In this document: in pieces, positions 41,743-49,637 of the stretch
How the letters are laid out: each line of letters opens with the position of its first letter
Position numbering within the stretch: position 1 is the first letter of the stretch
Assembly (NCBI GenBank): GCA_965263295.1
Contig: OZ253665.1
Coordinates: forward strand, 1,056,001-1,120,000
Direction: 5' to 3'
Length of the DNA: 64,000 nucleotides
Source: Spirochaetia bacterium
Lineage (GTDB): Bacteria > Spirochaetota > Spirochaetia > SP-2023
The notes under the pieces: generated by a model
Databases searched by the model: none
What the model was told of the DNA's origin: nothing
Seen by the model: the letters and a program-made list of their open reading frames with translations, nothing else
Made by a program: the position numbers and the translations under genes

Positions 41743-42393
41743 CTACTCGTCATTTTTATTGAGCAAAGCATTAAAATATTCCAAGTGGCGGACTTCTAGA
41801 CGCAGGGGGATCCCACGCTGTATTTGCCCAATCACGCTATCGTGAAAAGGTAGGTAAAGGTATTCCTGGCTATAATGGCGAATGTAATGAGGTGCGAGCC
41901 GGACTTCAAGCAAGAGTTGGGCTCCTCCTTCCATTAGGCCGCAAATCTGCCCCAGAGAGAACTCAGCTGGACTGCCTTTGGGGGCCTCGGAGACATGGTA
42001 GAGTTCGGCACCGATGAGCTCGCGATAGTGAAACTCGCCTTCGGCACAAGGGCTAGCATAATGTTCTTCCACCCAAAGTTCCCAGCCGTGAAAGGGCCTG
42101 ATCTGTTCTGGCGCGTTCCAGGCCCCGCACTTAAGAAGCAATTTATTGCTGCGACCCAATTCGTCTTGCCGCATGAGTAGCATTCCCTCAAGTTCTAATG
42201 CTTGTTTTCTATGATCCCGCGGGTGGCGGACTTCCAGTTTTCGCAGCTGACTCAGGCGGTGTTGGCCGCTGTCATCTGGCTGCAACGGATTGAAGAGGTG
42301 GCAGAGAAACTGTCCGCTCGTTTGATGAGACTTTACAATTCTGCCGATACAGATCAATAAAGGTTCGGTTGGCTCGGCAGGGAACATGACCAT
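41743..42393 (-). CDS. rimM: Ribosome maturation factor RimM (divergent)
   Basis: IGRIVKSH, EGEFHYRELIG and YLYLPF. Canonical position between khpA and trmD. Confidence 0.85.
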   Translation of the reverse strand: MVMFPAEPTEPLLICIGRIVKSHQTSGQFLCHLFNPLQPDDSGQHRLSQLRKLEVRHPRDHRKQALELEGMLLMRQDELGRSNKLLLKCGAWNAPEQIRPFHGWELWVEEHYASPCAEGEFHYRELIGAELYHVSEAPKGSPAEFSLGQICGLMEGGAQLLLEVRLAPHYIRHYSQEYLYLPFHDSVIGQIQRGIPLRLEVRHLEYFNALLNKNDE

Positions 42394-42487
42394 GCAGTCG
42401 TAACAGTAGAGTCAGGAAAGACAGAAGATAATTGCAGACAAGACAAAGCTGCAAGCAATTCAATAAATCGGCAGCTCAATCCGCCGC

Positions 42488-42733
42488 CTAGTCCAGAATT
42501 TCTAGGACATAGCGCTTATCCTGAAAGGCTGTCGCCGCCTGTAACAGGGTGCGCAATGCACGGGCAATGCGACCCTGACGGCCAATAACTTTGCCGATAT
42601 CTTCTTCTGAAACTCGAACTTCAAGGATGACAGAGCGTTCGCCTTCAATAGCTTCAACGCTTACTGCATCCGAGTGCTGGACCAGGGACTTGGTTATGTA
42701 TGCAATAAATTCTGCATATTCATTTGGGCTCAT
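42488..42733 (-). CDS. khpA: KH-domain RNA-binding protein
   Basis: DIGKVIGRQGRIARALRTLL. Confidence 0.95.
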   Translation of the reverse strand: MSPNEYAEFIAYITKSLVQHSDAVSVEAIEGERSVILEVRVSEEDIGKVIGRQGRIARALRTLLQAATAFQDKRYVLEILD

Positions 42734-42751
42734 AGTGTACCTGTACGCTAA

Positions 42752-42997
42752 CTATAGAAAAGAGATGCCGTTTCTTGTCAGCAGGCGTTTTACCGTGTCT
42801 GTAGGTTGAGCGCCCTGCTTCAGCCAGTATTCAGCACGCTCTTTGAGAACTTTGACCTGGTCTTCTTTTTCGACAGGGTGATAGTAACCAATCTCTTCAA
42901 TGGCTCGGCCATTGCGTGCCTTGCGGGAATCTATGACAACGATTCGATAGTAAGGGCGGTGAATAGCACCCAGTTTTTTCAAGCGGATTTTTACCAC
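42752..42997 (-). CDS. rpsP: 30S ribosomal protein S16
   Basis: [20 protein letters not shown] and GAQPTDTV. Confidence 0.98.
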
Positions 42998-43070
42998 AAG
43001 TCTACTCCCTGTATGGATATATGTTTGATGGCTGCGACCGAGCGGCTGCCGCCGGCCCGATTAGTTAGGT

Positions 43071-43099
43071 AGAATAAAAATTTTGCTGGTCCTTGTCAA
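43071..43099 (-). promoter_or_regulatory. sigma70 promoter of the rpsP operon
   Basis: TTGACA-N17-TATTCT. Confidence 0.7.
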
Positions 43100-43297
43100 G
43101 CTGTTTGCTTGAGTGCTGTGGCTCTTTCGCAGTTACCTGCGATTGTACTCTCAGGCCTGCTGCAAATTATTTCCCACCTTTTAATGTAAAATAGAGGCTG
43201 AGGATTGATTGTCTGGCGTCAATTAGCCGTCGTAGGCAAAGAAATAGAACTTTGTATAATTAGGCTCCTTTGCCTGGCTTTACTGTTTTAAAGCCCT

Positions 43298-44515
43298 ATG
43301 CCTAAAACTGGGGGGCCTGTGTGCGACTCATCATCTAAACTGCCTAATACTGCGGATATTCAAGTCCGGTCTGTGCCCTTGGGAGACCGTAAAAAGCTGA
43401 AGCAGTTCATCTACTTTCCCAAGAAGTTATATCGCGGCGAGCTCTACTCTGGCTATGCCGGCGGCCAACGAGACCCGTATTGGGTGCCTCCCTTGTGGCT
43501 TAGTGAGTTCGAATTGTTCAATCCGCTTAAGCATCCGATTCATCGGCATTCACGAATTCAACCTTTTCTGGCCTTTCACGCGGGGCGACTGGTGGGGCGT
43601 ATCGCCGCTATCAGGGATGAGCTGTATATCCAAGTTCGGCAGCGCCAGGTGGGCTACTTTGGCTTTTTTGAGTGCATTGATAATCCAGCGGTAGCTGCCG
43701 CATTGCAACACGCTGCAATCGACTGGTGCCGGGAGCAGGGCCTACGGGAAATCATGGGCCCAGTCAACCCTAGCCCCAACCATATAATCGGTTTTCTCTG
43801 TAATCATTTTGTAGAGCCTCCCGTGGTACAAACTCCCTACAACCCAGAGTACTATTTAAAATTTTTTAGCAATAGTGATGGCTGGGAAACGGAAATGAAA
43901 TTTTATGCCTACCGCATTGATCGCGATGTCCATCAGCCATCTGAAAAAGCTTTTCGAGTTGCCCAATTAGCCCGGCAGCGCAACAAGTACCTGGAAATCC
44001 GCCCGCTCAATCTCAAGGACTTCTCAACGGATGTGGAATATATCCGCCAGATATGGAACGAGGCTTGGCTTGACCATAGAGAGTTTGTCCCTTGGCCTGA
44101 AGATGAATTTCGTTATATGGCCAAGAGCTTGAAGCTGATTGCCAACCCCAAGCTGGCCAAGTTGGCATTTATTAAAGGTGAACCTGCCGGTTTTGTGATT
44201 CCCATACCCAACGTCAACGAGGCTATGATTAAATCTAGTGGCCATTTGACTCCGGCCCTAATCGCCCGCCTATTCAAAGTCCGCAAGGGTGGCGACTGGT
44301 TGCGCCTGGCGATACTGGGCGTGCGCGAGAAATTTCAAAAAGGTGGCATAGAAGCCATAATGCTTTGTGATGCCTATACTACGGGTATGCAAATGGGTTA
44401 CCAGCACGCGGATATGTCCTTCATTACCGAAGAGAATGACAAGCTTTTGAAGTTGCTGGATCATATGAATTTTTGGCGGTATCGCGAATATTGCACCTTT
44501 CGTAAGGCACTCTGA
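43298..44515 (+). CDS. YghO/bacterial ceramide synthase (bCerS)-like double-GNAT N-acyltransferase
   Basis: LKQFIYFPKKLY, DPYWVPPL, FLA..GRLVGRIAA, GYFGFFECID, IMGP, PYNPEYY, P.PNVNE and LGVREKFQKGG. Confidence 0.8.
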   Translation: MPKTGGPVCDSSSKLPNTADIQVRSVPLGDRKKLKQFIYFPKKLYRGELYSGYAGGQRDPYWVPPLWLSEFELFNPLKHPIHRHSRIQPFLAFHAGRLVGRIAAIRDELYIQVRQRQVGYFGFFECIDNPAVAAALQHAAIDWCREQGLREIMGPVNPSPNHIIGFLCNHFVEPPVVQTPYNPEYYLKFFSNSDGWETEMKFYAYRIDRDVHQPSEKAFRVAQLARQRNKYLEIRPLNLKDFSTDVEYIRQIWNEAWLDHREFVPWPEDEFRYMAKSLKLIANPKLAKLAFIKGEPAGFVIPIPNVNEAMIKSSGHLTPALIARLFKVRKGGDWLRLAILGVREKFQKGGIEAIMLCDAYTTGMQMGYQHADMSFITEENDKLLKLLDHMNFWRYREYCTFRKAL

Positions 44516-44555
44516 GGCATATAGCGCGAGTGTATTTTCACTGAGGAGAGATTTC

Positions 44556-45503
44556 ATGAGCAATGTGTTTTTATTTCCTGGCCAGGGGGCCCAATACTCT
44601 GGGATGGGAAAAGATTTATTCGATAGTTTTTCCAGTGTGCGCGAGCTGTTCCATTGTGCCAGTGATATCGCCTCACTGGACTTGCAGGAAATCTTGTTTA
44701 GCGGTACCGAGGAACAGCTGAAGCAGACTAATATTATCCAAATAGGCATTACTTTGGTGAACCTAAGTGTCGCGACCGTGCTGCGCGAAAAGGGCATACA
44801 AGCGCAGGCGACTGCGGGTTTTAGCCTGGGCGAATACTCTGCCCTGTGGTATGCGGGGGTGCTTACGACCGAATCTGTCTTTCAGGCCGTGGTGGAACGC
44901 GGCCGGGTCATGGATCAGTGTTGTCGAAAGTTAAATACTCAGGCTTCACAGCCAGCGGGCATGGCAGCAGTATTAGGCCTGACTTATGATGAAGTGGCCA
45001 CAGCTCTGGCCCCCCTTCAAGCTAAGGGGGCGCATATTTATATTGCCAACTATAATGCGGTAAAGCAAATTGTTATTGCTGGCAGTGGCGCAGCTATTGC
45101 CGAGGCCGACTCTGTCATGCAAGATGCTGGCGCCATGAAGTACGTGTTACTGAAGGTTAGTGGTCCATTCCATACTCCACTGATGAAAAGTGCCGCAGAA
45201 GAATTTAGCCGCTTTTTAAGAGAGAAAGTTCACTTTGCTCAGCCCCAGCTGGCGTTGTACTCCAACGTCACCGGCGAGAGAGTGGCGCCGGGGTCAGACT
45301 TGGCCGAACTGGCTTTACTGCAAATTTATAGCCCTGTATTGTGGGTAAACATTGAGGAGTCGCTGAAAGCCGAAGGTTACAGCCAAGCAATGGAGACGGG
45401 GCCAGGCAGCGTCTTGACCGGGCTCTGGAAGCAATTCTTGCGTAAACAACCCTGTCAAACTTTGGGGACTCTCGAACAAATCGAAAGCCTTGTAGCAAAA
45501 TAA
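44556..45503 (+). CDS. fabD: Malonyl-CoA:ACP transacylase
   Basis: FLFPGQGAQYSGMG, GFSLGEY, ANYN and LKVSGPFHTPLM. Confidence 0.95.
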   Translation: MSNVFLFPGQGAQYSGMGKDLFDSFSSVRELFHCASDIASLDLQEILFSGTEEQLKQTNIIQIGITLVNLSVATVLREKGIQAQATAGFSLGEYSALWYAGVLTTESVFQAVVERGRVMDQCCRKLNTQASQPAGMAAVLGLTYDEVATALAPLQAKGAHIYIANYNAVKQIVIAGSGAAIAEADSVMQDAGAMKYVLLKVSGPFHTPLMKSAAEEFSRFLREKVHFAQPQLALYSNVTGERVAPGSDLAELALLQIYSPVLWVNIEESLKAEGYSQAMETGPGSVLTGLWKQFLRKQPCQTLGTLEQIESLVAK

Positions 45504-45536
45504 AAGTATGGCGATAGACAGCTAACGGAGCCGAAA

Positions 45537-46829
45537 GTGAAGAATCAAAGGATTGTGATTACAGGCATTGGAACGGTGAACCCATTGGGGGGCAACCCGG
45601 AAGAATACTACCAAAATCTCTTGGCGGGTAAGTCGGGAATACGGCGTTGGCAGAGTCTAGACATGAGTAAGCTAGAGTGCCAGATCGGCGGTGATATGGG
45701 TGATTTTGACACTGCTGGCGCTATGGAACCCTTTTGGCCATATTTTGAAGGCCCAACATTCAAGTCTGTACGCAAGCTTTTTCGAGGCACGACTTTCTCT
45801 GCCAAAATTGCTCTGATTACGACGTTGCAGGCATGGGAAGATGCTGATTTCTTTGAAAGACCACCACTGGATCTCAGAGCAGTTAGCCTCCCGGTAGCTG
45901 GACACAACTTTAACTCAAACTATATCTTTGAGAATTACCGGACTTTTATTCAAGACCCGGACATGATTGAGCCATTGTGCAGTGTCGACGCCATTGATCC
46001 GAACCTGCCAGCGGTAGTTTCAGAGGCTCTCGGCTTGCATGGGCCGTCTTTTACGCTTGGCGGGGCATGTGCGAGTGGCAACCTGGCCCTTCGCCAGGGC
46101 TACCTGGACATTCTTTCGGGCGAGTGCGATACCGCTTTAGTTGTGGGACCTCCATTTGATGTCTCACCGGCGGATATTCAGGCTTCGACTATCCTTAGCG
46201 CCGTGGTTGTCAAACCAGAGTATCAGCATAACCCGACAAGCTCGTGCCGTCCGCTGGATAAGGGTCGTTGTGGGTTTCTTTATTCACACGGAGGCGCGAC
46301 GGTGGTTCTGGAGACTCTGGAGCGCGCGGAAGCGCGCGGCGCCAAGATTTATGGGGAGCTCCTGGGTGTGGCGGCTAACGCCAATGCCAATCACCTGCCG
46401 ATTCCTGGCGCAGAACACCAGGAACACGCCGTAAAGAAATTACTGAATATGACCGGGACAGAGCCTGAGCAGATTGATTATATCAACTGCCATGCCACCA
46501 GTACCTACGAGGGAGATTTACAGGAAATATTGGCACTGAAGAATGTTTTTGGTCCACATATCCAAAACATTAAATTGAATGCGCCGAAGTCCATGCTCGG
46601 CCACACTTGCTGGGCATCGCCGCTGGTAGAGACAATTGGCGCTTTGAAGTCTATGGAATACGGCAAGTTGCATCCGACTATCAATCTCGATGATCCCGAC
46701 CCAGAGGTCGAAGGTCTGGAGTTATGCGCCAACAAGGTCGTCAATCATCAGATTGACATAATGTTAAAAAATTCCTTTGGCTTTGGCGGTATCAATTGCT
46801 GTTCGCTGATTAAGCGCTTCCGAGGCTAA
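45537..46829 (+). CDS. Beta-ketoacyl-ACP synthase, atypical (PksF-like scaffold, Cys-His-His triad intact)
   Basis: IVITGIG, GGACASG, YINCHATST, KSMLGHTCW and NSFGFGGIN. Confidence 0.9.
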   Translation: MKNQRIVITGIGTVNPLGGNPEEYYQNLLAGKSGIRRWQSLDMSKLECQIGGDMGDFDTAGAMEPFWPYFEGPTFKSVRKLFRGTTFSAKIALITTLQAWEDADFFERPPLDLRAVSLPVAGHNFNSNYIFENYRTFIQDPDMIEPLCSVDAIDPNLPAVVSEALGLHGPSFTLGGACASGNLALRQGYLDILSGECDTALVVGPPFDVSPADIQASTILSAVVVKPEYQHNPTSSCRPLDKGRCGFLYSHGGATVVLETLERAEARGAKIYGELLGVAANANANHLPIPGAEHQEHAVKKLLNMTGTEPEQIDYINCHATSTYEGDLQEILALKNVFGPHIQNIKLNAPKSMLGHTCWASPLVETIGALKSMEYGKLHPTINLDDPDPEVEGLELCANKVVNHQIDIMLKNSFGFGGINCCSLIKRFRG

Positions 46830-46855
46830 GAAGAAGTGAATGTAGGGAGTCAAAC

Positions 46856-47611
46856 ATGGGAAAACATATTCGCAAGGCTTTTGTCACCGGTGCTTCACGC
46901 GGAATTGGCAAGGGTATAGTCAAGGCCTTGGTCCTCGAGGGCTATGATGTGGCCTTTACATATGTGAGTAAGCCTGAGGTTGCCGAGGCCACGGTCTCAG
47001 AATTACAGGCTCTAGCACCTTCGGCAAAAATTCGCGCCTATGCCATGCAGCTTCAGGACGCAGCACAGATTGAAGCCGTTGTCGATCAGGTATTGTTAGA
47101 TTTTGACGAGATAGGCGTGGTCGTTAACAATGCGGCCATGTTGCGCAACAATGCTGCCGCCCTCATGAGTAATGAAGAATGGGACCAGGTGATTGCCGCG
47201 GATCTCAGCGGGCCTTTTTACGTCATCCGTAGCTTTTTGATGCACATGATTGGCAATCGTTTTGGTCGCATCATTAATATCTCGTCGCTGGCTCAAGACG
47301 GAGTCAGCGGTCAGATCAATTATGCCGCAGCCAAAGCGGGGCTCGTGGGCATGACCAAGTCTCTCGCGCGCGAGTACGGTCCCAAAGGTATCACGGCGAA
47401 TATAGTCTCGGTGGGACTGGTAGACACGGATATGGCCCGCGAACACGCCCAGGACGAGATGGTTCAGCTACTACTTAATTACTGCCCGTTGCGGCGTTAC
47501 GGCGAGATTGACGAGATTGCCAATACCGTGAGCTTTCTGGCAGGAACGGGAGCCGCTTACATCAACGGTGAATCTATTCGTGTAGCTGGTGGCCTGTCTT
47601 ACGTCCCGTGA
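46856..47611 (+). CDS. fabG: 3-oxoacyl-ACP reductase (SDR)
   Basis: TGASRGIG, NNAA, NISS and GQINYAAAKAG. Confidence 0.88.
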   Translation: MGKHIRKAFVTGASRGIGKGIVKALVLEGYDVAFTYVSKPEVAEATVSELQALAPSAKIRAYAMQLQDAAQIEAVVDQVLLDFDEIGVVVNNAAMLRNNAAALMSNEEWDQVIAADLSGPFYVIRSFLMHMIGNRFGRIINISSLAQDGVSGQINYAAAKAGLVGMTKSLAREYGPKGITANIVSVGLVDTDMAREHAQDEMVQLLLNYCPLRRYGEIDEIANTVSFLAGTGAAYINGESIRVAGGLSYVP

Positions 47612-47624
47612 TTTCTGCAAGAAT

Positions 47625-48212
47625 ATGGATAAAGGAGTTGCCATCGAGCGGTGCATTGTGCTGCTCGGTTTGAAACATAGTGGCAAGAGTAGCGTGGGGC
47701 GTTTATTGGCCCCAGGCCTGCATCGCCGGCATTATGATGCGGACCGCTTACTTGAAGAACATTATTTTACCTTGTATCGAAAACGTCTGGGTCTGCGGGC
47801 GATTTATACCGAGTTGGGCAAGTCGGATTTTGACCGCTTACAGCTAAAGGTTCTACAAGATTTCCTTGAACGCGGTCCGGGCACAACGGACTTAGCCCCC
47901 CCCATCCTCTCTCTGGGGGGTGGAGCTGGGGACCTCGCTGAGTTGGGACAATTACTGTACGACAAAAATTGTTTCGTCATTTTGTTGGATGAGCAACCCA
48001 GTCTGTTGTTTCAACGCATCTTAAGAAGTGGTTTACCACCCTTCCTAGGCAATACAGCGACGCCTCAGGAAGCTTTTTCTCGATTTTATAAAATCAGTGG
48101 GCCGCGTCTACGGCGTTACCGTTTGTGGTCTGACCTTGTGTGCCGCTGCGCTCAACGCAGCCAAGAAGTCATAGCCAGAGAACTACAAGATCAGTTATGG
48201 ATTGAAGCTTAA
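47625..48212 (+). CDS. aroK: Shikimate kinase
   Basis: Walker A GLKHSGKSS, DAD and SLGGG. Confidence 0.8.
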   Translation: MDKGVAIERCIVLLGLKHSGKSSVGRLLAPGLHRRHYDADRLLEEHYFTLYRKRLGLRAIYTELGKSDFDRLQLKVLQDFLERGPGTTDLAPPILSLGGGAGDLAELGQLLYDKNCFVILLDEQPSLLFQRILRSGLPPFLGNTATPQEAFSRFYKISGPRLRRYRLWSDLVCRCAQRSQEVIARELQDQLWIEA

Positions 48213-48383
48213 AAAAGTCCAATCTTCAATGCTCGTCTACTTTCTTCGCACGAGTTCGGGACACAGAGTCTTCAAAACTAGCTTAAAGCCTCAGCCCGAA
48301 AGATTGCCGCAAGCTGCATTGCGTCCCGAATATGATTCGAGCAAGTTTGACCACCGGCGGATACAGGACAGCTTCTTTAACAA

Positions 48384-48412
48384 TTGACCTGTCTCACTAT
48401 ATTATATACAAT
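48384..48412 (+). promoter_or_regulatory. sigma70 promoter of the downstream diguanylate cyclase
   Basis: TTGACC-N17-TACAAT. Confidence 0.65.
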
Positions 48413-48527
48413 TGACAGGATTGCTTTTATCTTGGCTCAACTCCTTGTCCTGGAACGCCTAGGGAGTTTGCAAGTTCAGTTCTTGGTGGTCCAAAATCAT
48501 TTGAAGTTAAGGTGCCCGAAAATTGTT

Positions 48528-49637
48528 ATGATTGATTCAGCTTCTGATGCCCACAAGCCTCACGTAAAAACATCGTTCTGGAACCCGCCAGCTTCGCAGA
48601 GTTGCGACGACCACGATTTTTTTAACCTTTTCTATATTAGTATATTGTCTACAGATAGCCTGATAGACTTAGAAGCGAACCTGTTCTCCTTTATGCATGA
48701 AGTCTTACAACAACAGACGTGCCTGTTCTACAGCAATATAGACCAGATTGAGGACAAGGCTGCCTTCGTCTTGCAACGCGGTAGCTATTCAACAAGGCTT
48801 TCAAGGGAGCCCCTCAAAAATATCTTTCCGACAATGATCACGCTAGATATCGATCATGAAGCATTAAAATTACAGAGTCTGCATAACTGTAACGACATAA
48901 ATCAAAATCATGATTTAAGGACAAACTTTTTTTCTGTCAATTCACAGCCCCCGACACATTCGTTCATAACGCAATTTAAAAATTCTGGCAACGATCTTCG
49001 TTGTGGCATGTTGCTACACAATGGCAGAGAAATCCATGGTGTTCTGCTGTACGAGCGCCCATTCCACCACCCGTATTTAAACACTCCGCTACGGCTGCAG
49101 CAATTCCAAGCCTTCTTGTCAATGTCCCTCGCTCACCGTCAGACTCTAAACTATGCGACTTTGGATCAGCTGACAGACCTGCATCGCAAATACTATTTTC
49201 TGAATCTAGTCCAGCGTCAGCTATATAAAAACCATAAAGACCATCAACTAATGATTATTGATATTGATTTATTTAAGAAATTTAACGATACCTATGGACA
49301 TCTAGAAGGTGACAATTGCCTCAAAAGTATTGCTAAAGCGATTAAAAACTCTTTGCGCAATCACGATGTCGCCGGGCGTTTTGGCGGTGAAGAATTGATC
49401 TGCCTTATTCAGAGTAATCTCAAACAAGGCCTTGTTGTCGCTCAACGCATTCACGATACAATTAAGAAGATCAGCCTGCGCAGCTCTACAGGCGATATGC
49501 TCCCTGTGCCGACGGTGTCCATAGGTATCGCCAGCTTCCGACAAGGAGAGGCGTTGAACCAATTAATAGAAAGGGCAGATAAAGCACTCTATCAGGCCAA
49601 ACAGAGTGGCCGCAATCAAACAGTCACTTCCAGCTGA
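48528..49637 (+). CDS. Cytoplasmic diguanylate cyclase (GAF-like + GGDEF, GGEEL variant)
   Basis: DQLTDL, DIDLFKKFNDTYGH, RNHD I-site, RFGGEEL and AKQSGRN. ATG 48528 preferred because the promoter overlaps the TTG at 48384. Confidence 0.88.
   Translation: MIDSASDAHKPHVKTSFWNPPASQSCDDHDFFNLFYISILSTDSLIDLEANLFSFMHEVLQQQTCLFYSNIDQIEDKAAFVLQRGSYSTRLSREPLKNIFPTMITLDIDHEALKLQSLHNCNDINQNHDLRTNFFSVNSQPPTHSFITQFKNSGNDLRCGMLLHNGREIHGVLLYERPFHHPYLNTPLRLQQFQAFLSMSLAHRQTLNYATLDQLTDLHRKYYFLNLVQRQLYKNHKDHQLMIIDIDLFKKFNDTYGHLEGDNCLKSIAKAIKNSLRNHDVAGRFGGEELICLIQSNLKQGLVVAQRIHDTIKKISLRSSTGDMLPVPTVSIGIASFRQGEALNQLIERADKALYQAKQSGRNQTVTSS

Follow-up and report, generated by a model that had tools for sequence, protein, structure and literature searches.

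We analysed a 64,000-nucleotide stretch of the genome of a Spirochaetia bacterium (contig OZ253665.1; hereafter the window) in which four co-oriented genes encode an N-acyltransferase of the YghO/bacterial ceramide synthase (bCerS) family with tandem GNAT domains (gene 1), the malonyl-CoA:acyl carrier protein (ACP) transacylase FabD (gene 2), a ketosynthase (KS; gene 3) and a FabG-like short-chain dehydrogenase/reductase (SDR; gene 4). We propose, with moderate confidence, that this locus represents the 5' portion of a conserved, type II pathway to an N-acylated, methyl-branched long-chain base, a hitherto undescribed, sphingolipid-like ceramide analogue. The proposal builds on gene content, gene order, the orthology of scattered parts and active-site residues, all of which were observed. 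We are highly confident of one component, that the window belongs to an operon uniting a hydroxymethylglutaryl (HMG) synthase (HMGS) and an oxoamine synthase (AOS). The genome, a 2.41-Mb single contig that is 92.6% complete (G000; the window is G000:1056001-1120000), was compared with genomes, loci and families labelled G, L and f, including a search of 401 Spirochaetota genomes. The closest named relative was Ca. Haliotispira prima, with 78% identity for gene 1 and 87% for the KS.

Orthologues of the window KS were found at 54% identity in two named metagenome-assembled genomes (L058 and L059), each within one operon of the order fabF2-KS-fabG-HMGS-ECH1-ECH2-ER-ACP-AOS-fabZ2-PPTase, where ER is a FabL-like enoyl reductase and PPTase a phosphopantetheinyl transferase. 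All ten L058 enzyme or ACP genes used as queries had a counterpart in G000 at 33-70% identity; the L058 PPTase query had no match in G000, and another PPTase query did match. The remaining operon genes are kept in G000 at four loci other than the window, beside a separate, ordinary type II fatty acid synthesis (FASII) system. In two genomes of another family (G309 and G357; loci L104 and L105) the order GNAT-FabD-KS-FabG-HMGS-ECH1-ECH2-ER-ACP-AOS-FabZ2 was intact, and the window's four genes are the exact 5' end of this eleven-gene order. The same order was intact through FabZ2 on metagenome contig L198, and the order from GNAT to AOS was present on L237, where the contig ends at AOS. The adjacency of GNAT, fabD and KS, for which the sequence-only reading of this DNA had proposed a synteny survey, does recur outside the genus.

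The operon was found repeatedly in genomes and metagenomes. A search of the Spirochaetota genomes with the L058 HMGS (E 1e-40) returned 32 matches, comprising G000, 18 close matches (58-70%), ten at about 40% and three at about 32%. Fourteen of the 18 close loci ran from KS to AOS in order, and the other four were incomplete or cut short on small contigs. The L058 AOS query returned 73 metagenome loci. An operon AOS was present in 57, accompanied by the ER in 46 of them and by an adjacent ACP in 47, the remainder being mostly cut short. Twenty metagenome loci extended to the KS and, among the 17 with at least 2 kb upstream of it, FabD was present in nine and GNAT-FabD in two (L198 and L237); seven metagenome loci look like near relatives, so that these counts overstate independence. 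Within the genus, HMGS, ECH1, AOS, GNAT, FabD and KS were kept in all three congeners at 59-89% identity, and the degree of operon break-up varied between genomes. No description of the operon was found among search listings of the open-licence literature; the main text of a Black Sea study contains no occurrence of 'spiroch', and proteins of this kind might appear in its supplementary tables. The present analysis adds a YghO clade tied to the operon, a gene set that is dispersed yet complete, and the sulfonolipid rival described below.

The sequence-only reading had suggested that the locus builds or elongates an acyl chain and amide-links it to an amino-lipid. This was supported in part, but the module is not a plain elongase and instead forms part of an HMG-synthase β-branching cassette. 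The best solved relatives of HMGS were 8s81 and CurD, those of ECH2 were PksI and CurF (PRK07110 252.6, above the cut-off of 215), and that of the donor-type ACP was CurB. For the ACP and ECH1 the cassette families were the best matches, yet under cut-off. A mevalonate role for HMGS was rejected because no HMG-CoA reductase was found in G000. In known cassettes the KS is condensation-incompetent (KS0) and HMGS works on an acceptor ACP, and CurD can use acetoacetyl-ACP(D) in the acceptor role, though 3-fold less efficiently (PMC11522927, in excerpt). The latter activity suggests that one ACP could fill donor and acceptor roles. A search of G000 detected no modular polyketide synthase (PKS), only three free KSs and two free ACPs, AcpP and the donor-type ACP; G309, G357 and G407 likewise have two ACPs each. 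Given two ACPs and no modular PKS, the acceptor role would fall to AcpP or to the donor ACP.

The window KS retains the catalytic residues Cys178-His319-His356. All 28 aligned orthologue rows, which include duplicates, carry Cys178, whereas Ala or Ser replaces the Cys in the aligned motif of two plasmid cassette KSs. In a careful tree of 20 rows, from which the plasmid cassette KS of L268 was left out as it has no single open reading frame (ORF), the window KS type formed its own clade apart from FabF. FabF has a glycine-rich stretch that lines the long acyl channel; at this position the window KS has a bulky His-Asn-Phe-Asn, which argues for short substrates. The window KS is thus a probable chain initiator, giving acetyl- and acetoacetyl-ACP. 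If the cassette instead acted repeatedly or mid-chain, an internally or multiply methylated, isoprenoid-like chain would result before the AOS and GNAT steps. The operon is accompanied by two condensing enzymes with an intact Cys, FabF2 and the window KS, and a Vor-like enzyme could already give iso starters. Nevertheless, the residues at the channel entry favour short substrates and the only ACP in the operon is donor-type, and we consider this alternative highly improbable.

The fab genes of the window are distinct from the housekeeping set. A canonical set (fabH-fabH-fabG-fabF-fabZ-fabV at 378844-384978, with acpP at 2181470) was found when the second set asked for by the sequence-only reading was sought, and the premise drawn there from Borrelia and Treponema pallidum, which lack de novo fatty acid synthesis, does not apply to this organism with its full FASII. 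The FabF gene at 380543 scored 541.3 bits against TIGR03150 (cut-off 493.75), whereas the window KS scored 277.8 and had the PksF-like PRK07103 as its best NCBIfam match (304 bits, cut-off 445). We therefore rejected an ordinary FASII identity for these genes, as the KS is not a FabF equivalog and a separate canonical set exists. FabD and FabG of the window also scored below their equivalog cut-offs (TIGR00128 230.8 versus 260.9; TIGR01830 225 versus 298). The window FabG is 49-60% identical to operon FabG proteins elsewhere, with a far weaker match (144 bits) to the housekeeping FabG at 381814, and is predicted to be a 3-oxoacyl-ACP reductase, a 3-keto-base reductase or both. The claim that the locus has its own FabD failed: this is the sole FabD found here and in each of the six other genomes tested. 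As the only FabD it must also feed ordinary FASII, and is thus common to both pathways.

Gene 1 showed full-length homology to E. coli YghO (30% over 384 aa, E 1e-48), as had been recognised from the motifs DPxWVPPL, VGRIAA, GxFGFFE and PYNPxYY, which are present at residues 59, 99, 119 and 180. YghO, which we take to be the bCerS orthologue, stood in for Caulobacter bCerS in all comparisons. The E. coli sphingolipid operon is held to be homologous to that of Caulobacter, and in E. coli NZ_CP172331 the neighbours of yghO are the serine palmitoyltransferase gene spt, acp, and genes for an epimerase-family protein and a fatty acyl-AMP ligase (FAAL). Pfam, NCBIfam and single-sequence PDB searches with gene 1 returned nothing and a profile search gave weak GNAT matches, while the predicted structure (pLDDT 92, residues 1-13 below 50) had tandem GNATs as its best folds (7q3a, E 2.6e-14). 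No transmembrane segment was predicted (highest 19-residue hydropathy 1.08). The tandem-GNAT model and the absence of a transmembrane segment fit bCerS, a peripheral cytoplasmic protein (PMC11087976, in excerpt).

In the GNAT tree the window protein, its counterparts from the three congeners and all four other GNATs that precede fabD-KS grouped in one 15-row clade (SH-aLRT 98), of which seven rows lacked gene context. This clade was separate from the GNATs beside CFB-type Spt genes and from those of genomes bearing cysteate-C-fatty acyltransferase (CFAT); the E. coli, Sphingomonas and Roseomonas YghO proteins formed their own clade (support 99), with the window GNAT outside. YghO homologues were detected in 133 of 401 Spirochaetota genomes, including one in G000. 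All 18 genomes of the close HMGS clade carry a homologue, versus 132 of 400 genomes overall, a comparison among kin that are not independent.

A related cassette was found in the 40% HMGS clade, of which seven of ten loci were read. Its order is KS-methyltransferase-FabG-HMGS-ECH1-ECH2-ACP-PlsC-type acyltransferase-ACPS (L130:4488-12690 and L131:5994-14635), with no AOS and no ER in this stretch, and it is a candidate branched phospholipid pathway. Its PlsC-type outlet suggests that the cassette provides branched acyl chains for membrane lipids and that its outlets are interchangeable. Could fabD-KS-fabG then be a general (iso-)fatty acid supply for phospholipids, with the GNAT as a functionally unlinked passenger? 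The sole FabD, the 15 of 17 informative metagenome loci with no GNAT upstream, the commonness of YghO homologues across the phylum, and the passage of this second cassette clade to an acyltransferase, with no AOS in the loci read, are in keeping with such a role. However, a canonical fab set with acpP exists elsewhere in the genome, the operon-specific GNAT clade spans families and ACP and AOS are persistently adjacent, which leaves this explanation very unlikely.

Four AOS genes were found in the genome. Kbl adjoins tdh, BioF lies close to the bio genes, and the other two are a CFAT-like gene and the operon AOS. Assignment of the operon AOS as BioF or Kbl was rejected, since both are present separately. 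Its pyridoxal phosphate (PLP) residues are intact, its best match among solved structures was S. multivorum Spt (260 bits), and it fell on the Spt/CFAT side of the AOS tree (SH-aLRT 96), sister (94) to AOSs beside YghO genes, some of them also beside an ACP. Thus the search for spt, also suggested by the sequence-only reading, recovered an Spt-like AOS with its own ACP, but not a canonical Spt, and that for cerR recovered no CerR in the genome. None of the three genomic patterns which that reading had set against itself (no spt-like gene, no other fab genes, no conserved adjacency) was found. Small amino acids, Ser, Ala or Gly, are the candidate substrates of the AOS. In G309 and G357 the operon AOS was the sole AOS found besides Kbl and there was no CFAT match, so that the operon GNAT there has one plausible base. 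The window GNAT is predicted to N-acylate a 3-keto long-chain base. No match to lptF2/G2 paralogues was found in G000, and no FAAL beside the operon genes. The 3-ketosphinganine reductase of Bacteroides is a FabG-like SDR, and by analogy the window FabG could act as a 3-ketosphinganine-type reductase. The Bacteroides enzyme is a reductase other than CerR (PMC11087976, in the part available).

Several other arrangements of AOS and YghO genes were seen. Natural Spt-like/YghO fusion proteins of about 780-795 aa occur in G404 and G405 (L101:1429-3816 and L102:1456-3789), both of which also have the HMGS-AOS operon. The order Spt-like, GGDEF protein, unknown gene, YghO recurs in several spirochaete families (L135:9813-15139, L136:63-5319, L138), and family f42 has ACP-AOS-YghO triplets (L035, L043, L047, L050); the AOSs of these triplets form a sister clade to the operon AOS, not to Spt. 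One cultured spirochaete is reported to contain iso-C15:0 and an unidentified aminolipid (PMC4511686, in excerpt), which we did not count as evidence here.

On this basis the following pathway may be proposed. Malonyl would be loaded by FabD onto the donor-type ACP (G000 2227714), and the window KS, with its Cys kept and its glycine-rich channel entry lost, would produce acetyl- and acetoacetyl-ACP. HMGS, ECH1, ECH2 and the FabL-like ER would convert this to a β-methyl-branched saturated acyl-ACP, most simply isovaleryl-ACP, which FabF2, the window FabG, FabZ2 and the ER would extend to a long iso-acyl chain. The PLP enzyme AOS would condense this chain with Ser, Ala or Gly to a 3-keto base, to which the window GNAT would amide-link a second acyl chain. 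As no CerR was found, the keto group would be reduced by a FabG-like SDR or left oxidised. The methyl branch is probably iso-terminal, although a mid-chain branch is possible.

A number of observations weigh against this predicted pathway. The GNAT lies 5' of the operon in only two of the 18 genome loci (at one further locus, L115, a distant GNAT paralogue lies on the opposite strand) and in only two of the 17 metagenome loci with sufficient upstream sequence. Apart from G309/G357 and G027/G058, six close-HMGS genomes were checked in the tree, and their YghO homologues fell outside the operon-GNAT clade, as did those of G027 and G058. The operon AOS scored far short of each of the three NCBIfam cut-offs for Spt (313.5/640, 268/500 and 232/670) and formed a 100-supported clade outside Spt. 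Where S. multivorum Spt has Ser81-Arg, in a loop close to the substrate (PMC10196870, in excerpt), the operon AOS carries Ala-Pro. Both trees were quick searches with SH-aLRT support only (75 rows for GNAT, 43 for AOS). A search of this 92.6% complete genome for CerR, with the epimerase of the E. coli spt locus as query, found no match at E 0.01, and four further queries gave a best E of 1.7e-5. A single FabD was found in each of G000-G003, G309, G357 and G407. No E1 dehydrogenase was found in G000, but a Vor-like oxidoreductase was; leucine-derived branched starters are therefore possible, which weakens the need for an isovaleryl route. Finally, a cysteate synthase/CFAT pair in the genus provides a second possible amino-lipid acceptor.

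This last pair underlies the suggestion that the GNAT in this genus mainly N-acylates capnine, with the cassette only supplying iso-acyl chains. The pair lies at G000 2385931-2388884 on the - strand (L140:7932-10885); the cysteate synthase (TIGR03844 321.1, 3.8 bits under the cut-off of 324.9) is directly followed by a gene whose best solved relative is the cysteate-C-fatty acyltransferase 28eh (318 bits). CFAT is present in all three congeners, and the window GNAT is the sole YghO homologue in G000. Capnine is N-acylated with iso-fatty acids in sulfonolipids (PMC10191378, in excerpt), so that the single G000 GNAT may serve two bases. Yet the pair is unlinked to the window, G309 and G357 have the GNAT inside the operon and no CFAT match at E 1e-85, the YghO proteins of CFAT-bearing f20 genomes belong to a different clade, and only three of the 18 close-HMGS genomes carry CFAT; we therefore regard a mainly capnine-directed GNAT as unlikely. 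CFAT-like genes were detected in 20 of the 401 Spirochaetota genomes, with 13 of 14 in family f20. A further reading, to which we assign a low probability, would combine both outlets: repeated or internal methyl branches would give an isoprenoid-like ceramide by polyketide logic, together with a capnine sulfonolipid, through one shared GNAT. In this improbable case spirochaetes and other anaerobes would have a stand-alone, ACP-bound HMGS cassette with a Cys-retaining KS and their own AOS and ceramide-synthase clades.

A small diffusible or secreted N-acyl aminoketone, acting as a signal or specialised metabolite rather than a bulk membrane lipid, is another product to be considered. CqsA-type AOSs make aminoketone signals, and proteins of this type were weak matches of the operon AOS, which forms its own clade and is not an Spt. 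The genome also yielded no CerR and no lptF2/G2 paralogue match, and polyketide biosynthesis is a known setting for HMGS cassettes (PMC11522927, in excerpt). However, the search of G000 detected no modular PKS, only free ACPs (two) and KSs (three), the operon has no recurring gene for transport, tailoring or resistance, the related cassette leads to a PlsC-type acyltransferase, hinting at a membrane lipid, and the genes were kept after dispersal in four of four genus genomes. We consider a diffusible product improbable, and retain the membrane-lipid pathway as the preferred reading.

The proposed pathway resembles several known systems without matching any. Like the Spt-bCerS-CerR pathway of Caulobacter and the E. 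coli locus, it has a YghO-family N-acyltransferase with no transmembrane segment and a PLP oxoamine synthase beside an ACP. In contrast to that pathway, it has no CerR or lptF2/G2 match and no adjoining FAAL, its AOS and GNAT lie in clades separate from Spt and from proteobacterial YghO, and a linked branching cassette would supply its acyl chain by de novo synthesis. With no CerR and an AOS outside Spt, it does not appear to be a member of the canonical three-gene pathway. It shares with the HMGS cassettes of bacillaene (AcpK/PksF/PksG/PksH/PksI), curacin (CurB-F) and virginiamycin a donor-type ACP, HMGS, ECH1, ECH2 and a related stand-alone KS. Here, however, the KS catalytic Cys is kept, unlike in the two plasmid cassettes, no modular PKS or acceptor ACP domain is present, and the cassette is coupled to FabG, FabZ, ER, FabF2, AOS and GNAT. 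With its Cys kept and no PKS, it also falls outside the canonical HMGS cassettes by sequence. The Myxococcus Aib route to isovaleryl-CoA proceeds through HMG, methylglutaconyl and dimethylacrylyl intermediates, is CoA-bound and primes iso-fatty acids; the chemistry proposed here would be the same, with parts of the ACP-dependent polyketide type. The sulfonolipid pathway CapA/CapB(SulA)/CapC also uses AOS condensation on acyl-ACP, SDR reduction and iso-chain N-acylation, but the operon AOS clade differs from CFAT, and the genome's own CapA/CapB-like pair, the cysteate synthase/CFAT pair above, was not found in G309 or G357. As in Pseudomonas fluorescens MYb115 SgaAB, where sphinganines are PKS-derived and SgaA is one iterative type I PKS (PMC12134224, in excerpt), a dedicated chain builder would feed an oxoamine synthase; here the builder consists of dissociated (type II) parts, among them a branching cassette, and comes with an N-acyltransferase.

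If correct, the proposal would extend bacterial sphingolipid-type synthesis to spirochaetes, and a polyketide β-branching cassette would serve a membrane lipid with a KS that breaks the KS0 rule. Screens for Spt, bCerS and CerR together may miss this route, because its AOS groups apart from Spt and CerR was not detected. The scattered gene set would represent a pathway surviving operon break-up within one genus. The intact eleven-gene operon can be expressed in one piece, which makes the product directly testable, and the predicted branched amide lipid could be sought by environmental lipidomics.

The sequence-only reading was correct on the layout of the locus, with four co-oriented ORFs separated by gaps of 40, 33 and 26 nt, and in finding no spt, ACP or dehydratase gene in the window. 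No ACP, FabZ or oxoamine synthase gene was detected within the window, and the genome's two ACP, two FabZ and four AOS genes all lie outside it. A fifth co-oriented ORF absent from that reading, which is shikimate-kinase-like, also follows fabG in the congeneric loci L056 and L127, and its position is occupied by HMGS in intact operons. It thus appears to be a genus-level neighbour outside the conserved operon. Promoter-like sites numbered 14 in the region versus 5.8 +/- 2.5 in shuffles. Coordinates are given in Table 1.

Table 1. Features of the locus (window positions) and operon genes at other loci of the genome (G000 positions)
Feature	Position	Strand	Remarks
Promoter-like site 5' of gene 1	43233..43260	+	10/12 consensus matches, 16-nt spacer; a consensus match alone, not evidence of function
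Gene 1, YghO/bCerS-family tandem-GNAT N-acyltransferase	43298-44515	+	405 aa; first ~13 residues uncertain
Gene 2, malonyl-CoA:ACP transacylase FabD	44556-45503	+	315 aa; Acyl_transf_1 (PF00698) 103.5 bits
Gene 3, cassette ketosynthase (KS)	45537-46829	+	430 aa, GTG start; ketoacyl-synt
Gene 4, FabG-like SDR of cassette	46856-47611	+	251 aa; adh_short
Shikimate-kinase-like ORF	47589-48212	+	PF01202 48.8 bits; overlaps fabG by 23 nt
HMGS (531526) and ECH1 (530697)	G000 530697-532770		Scattered operon genes
ECH2 (2228956), ER, FabL-like (2228085), ACP (2227714) and AOS (2226032)	G000 2226032-2229804		
FabF2	G000 2209615		
FabZ2	G000 1463895		

An assembly artefact was considered and found to be unsupported, as positions 42000-49000 were uninterrupted on contigs of two of three sequencing runs, from two studies. 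One of these contigs differs at 152 of 7001 letters; the other is near-identical and may be the source of this DNA. A contig of run X5 begins within the KS gene, at window position 45575, and carries a loose, adapter-like end from which we inferred nothing. Elsewhere in G000, IspG is present (L267) but no DXR match and no HMG-CoA reductase were found; entry to isoprenoid synthesis may be through a DXR-like II enzyme, or a gene may have been missed. A Fur-family regulator gene (L017:11806-12315) ends right before ECH2-ER-ACP-AOS in G000, an arrangement not seen in G001. Genes for a Vor-like oxidoreductase, a butyrate-kinase-like protein and a phosphotransacylase lie directly 5' of the intact operon in G309 (L104:155-5007), but not in G357. 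A few kb from fabF2, an ORF of 1459 aa (L020:11584-15963) contains long, near-perfect tandem repeats, across which another reading frame also stays open over 762 aa.

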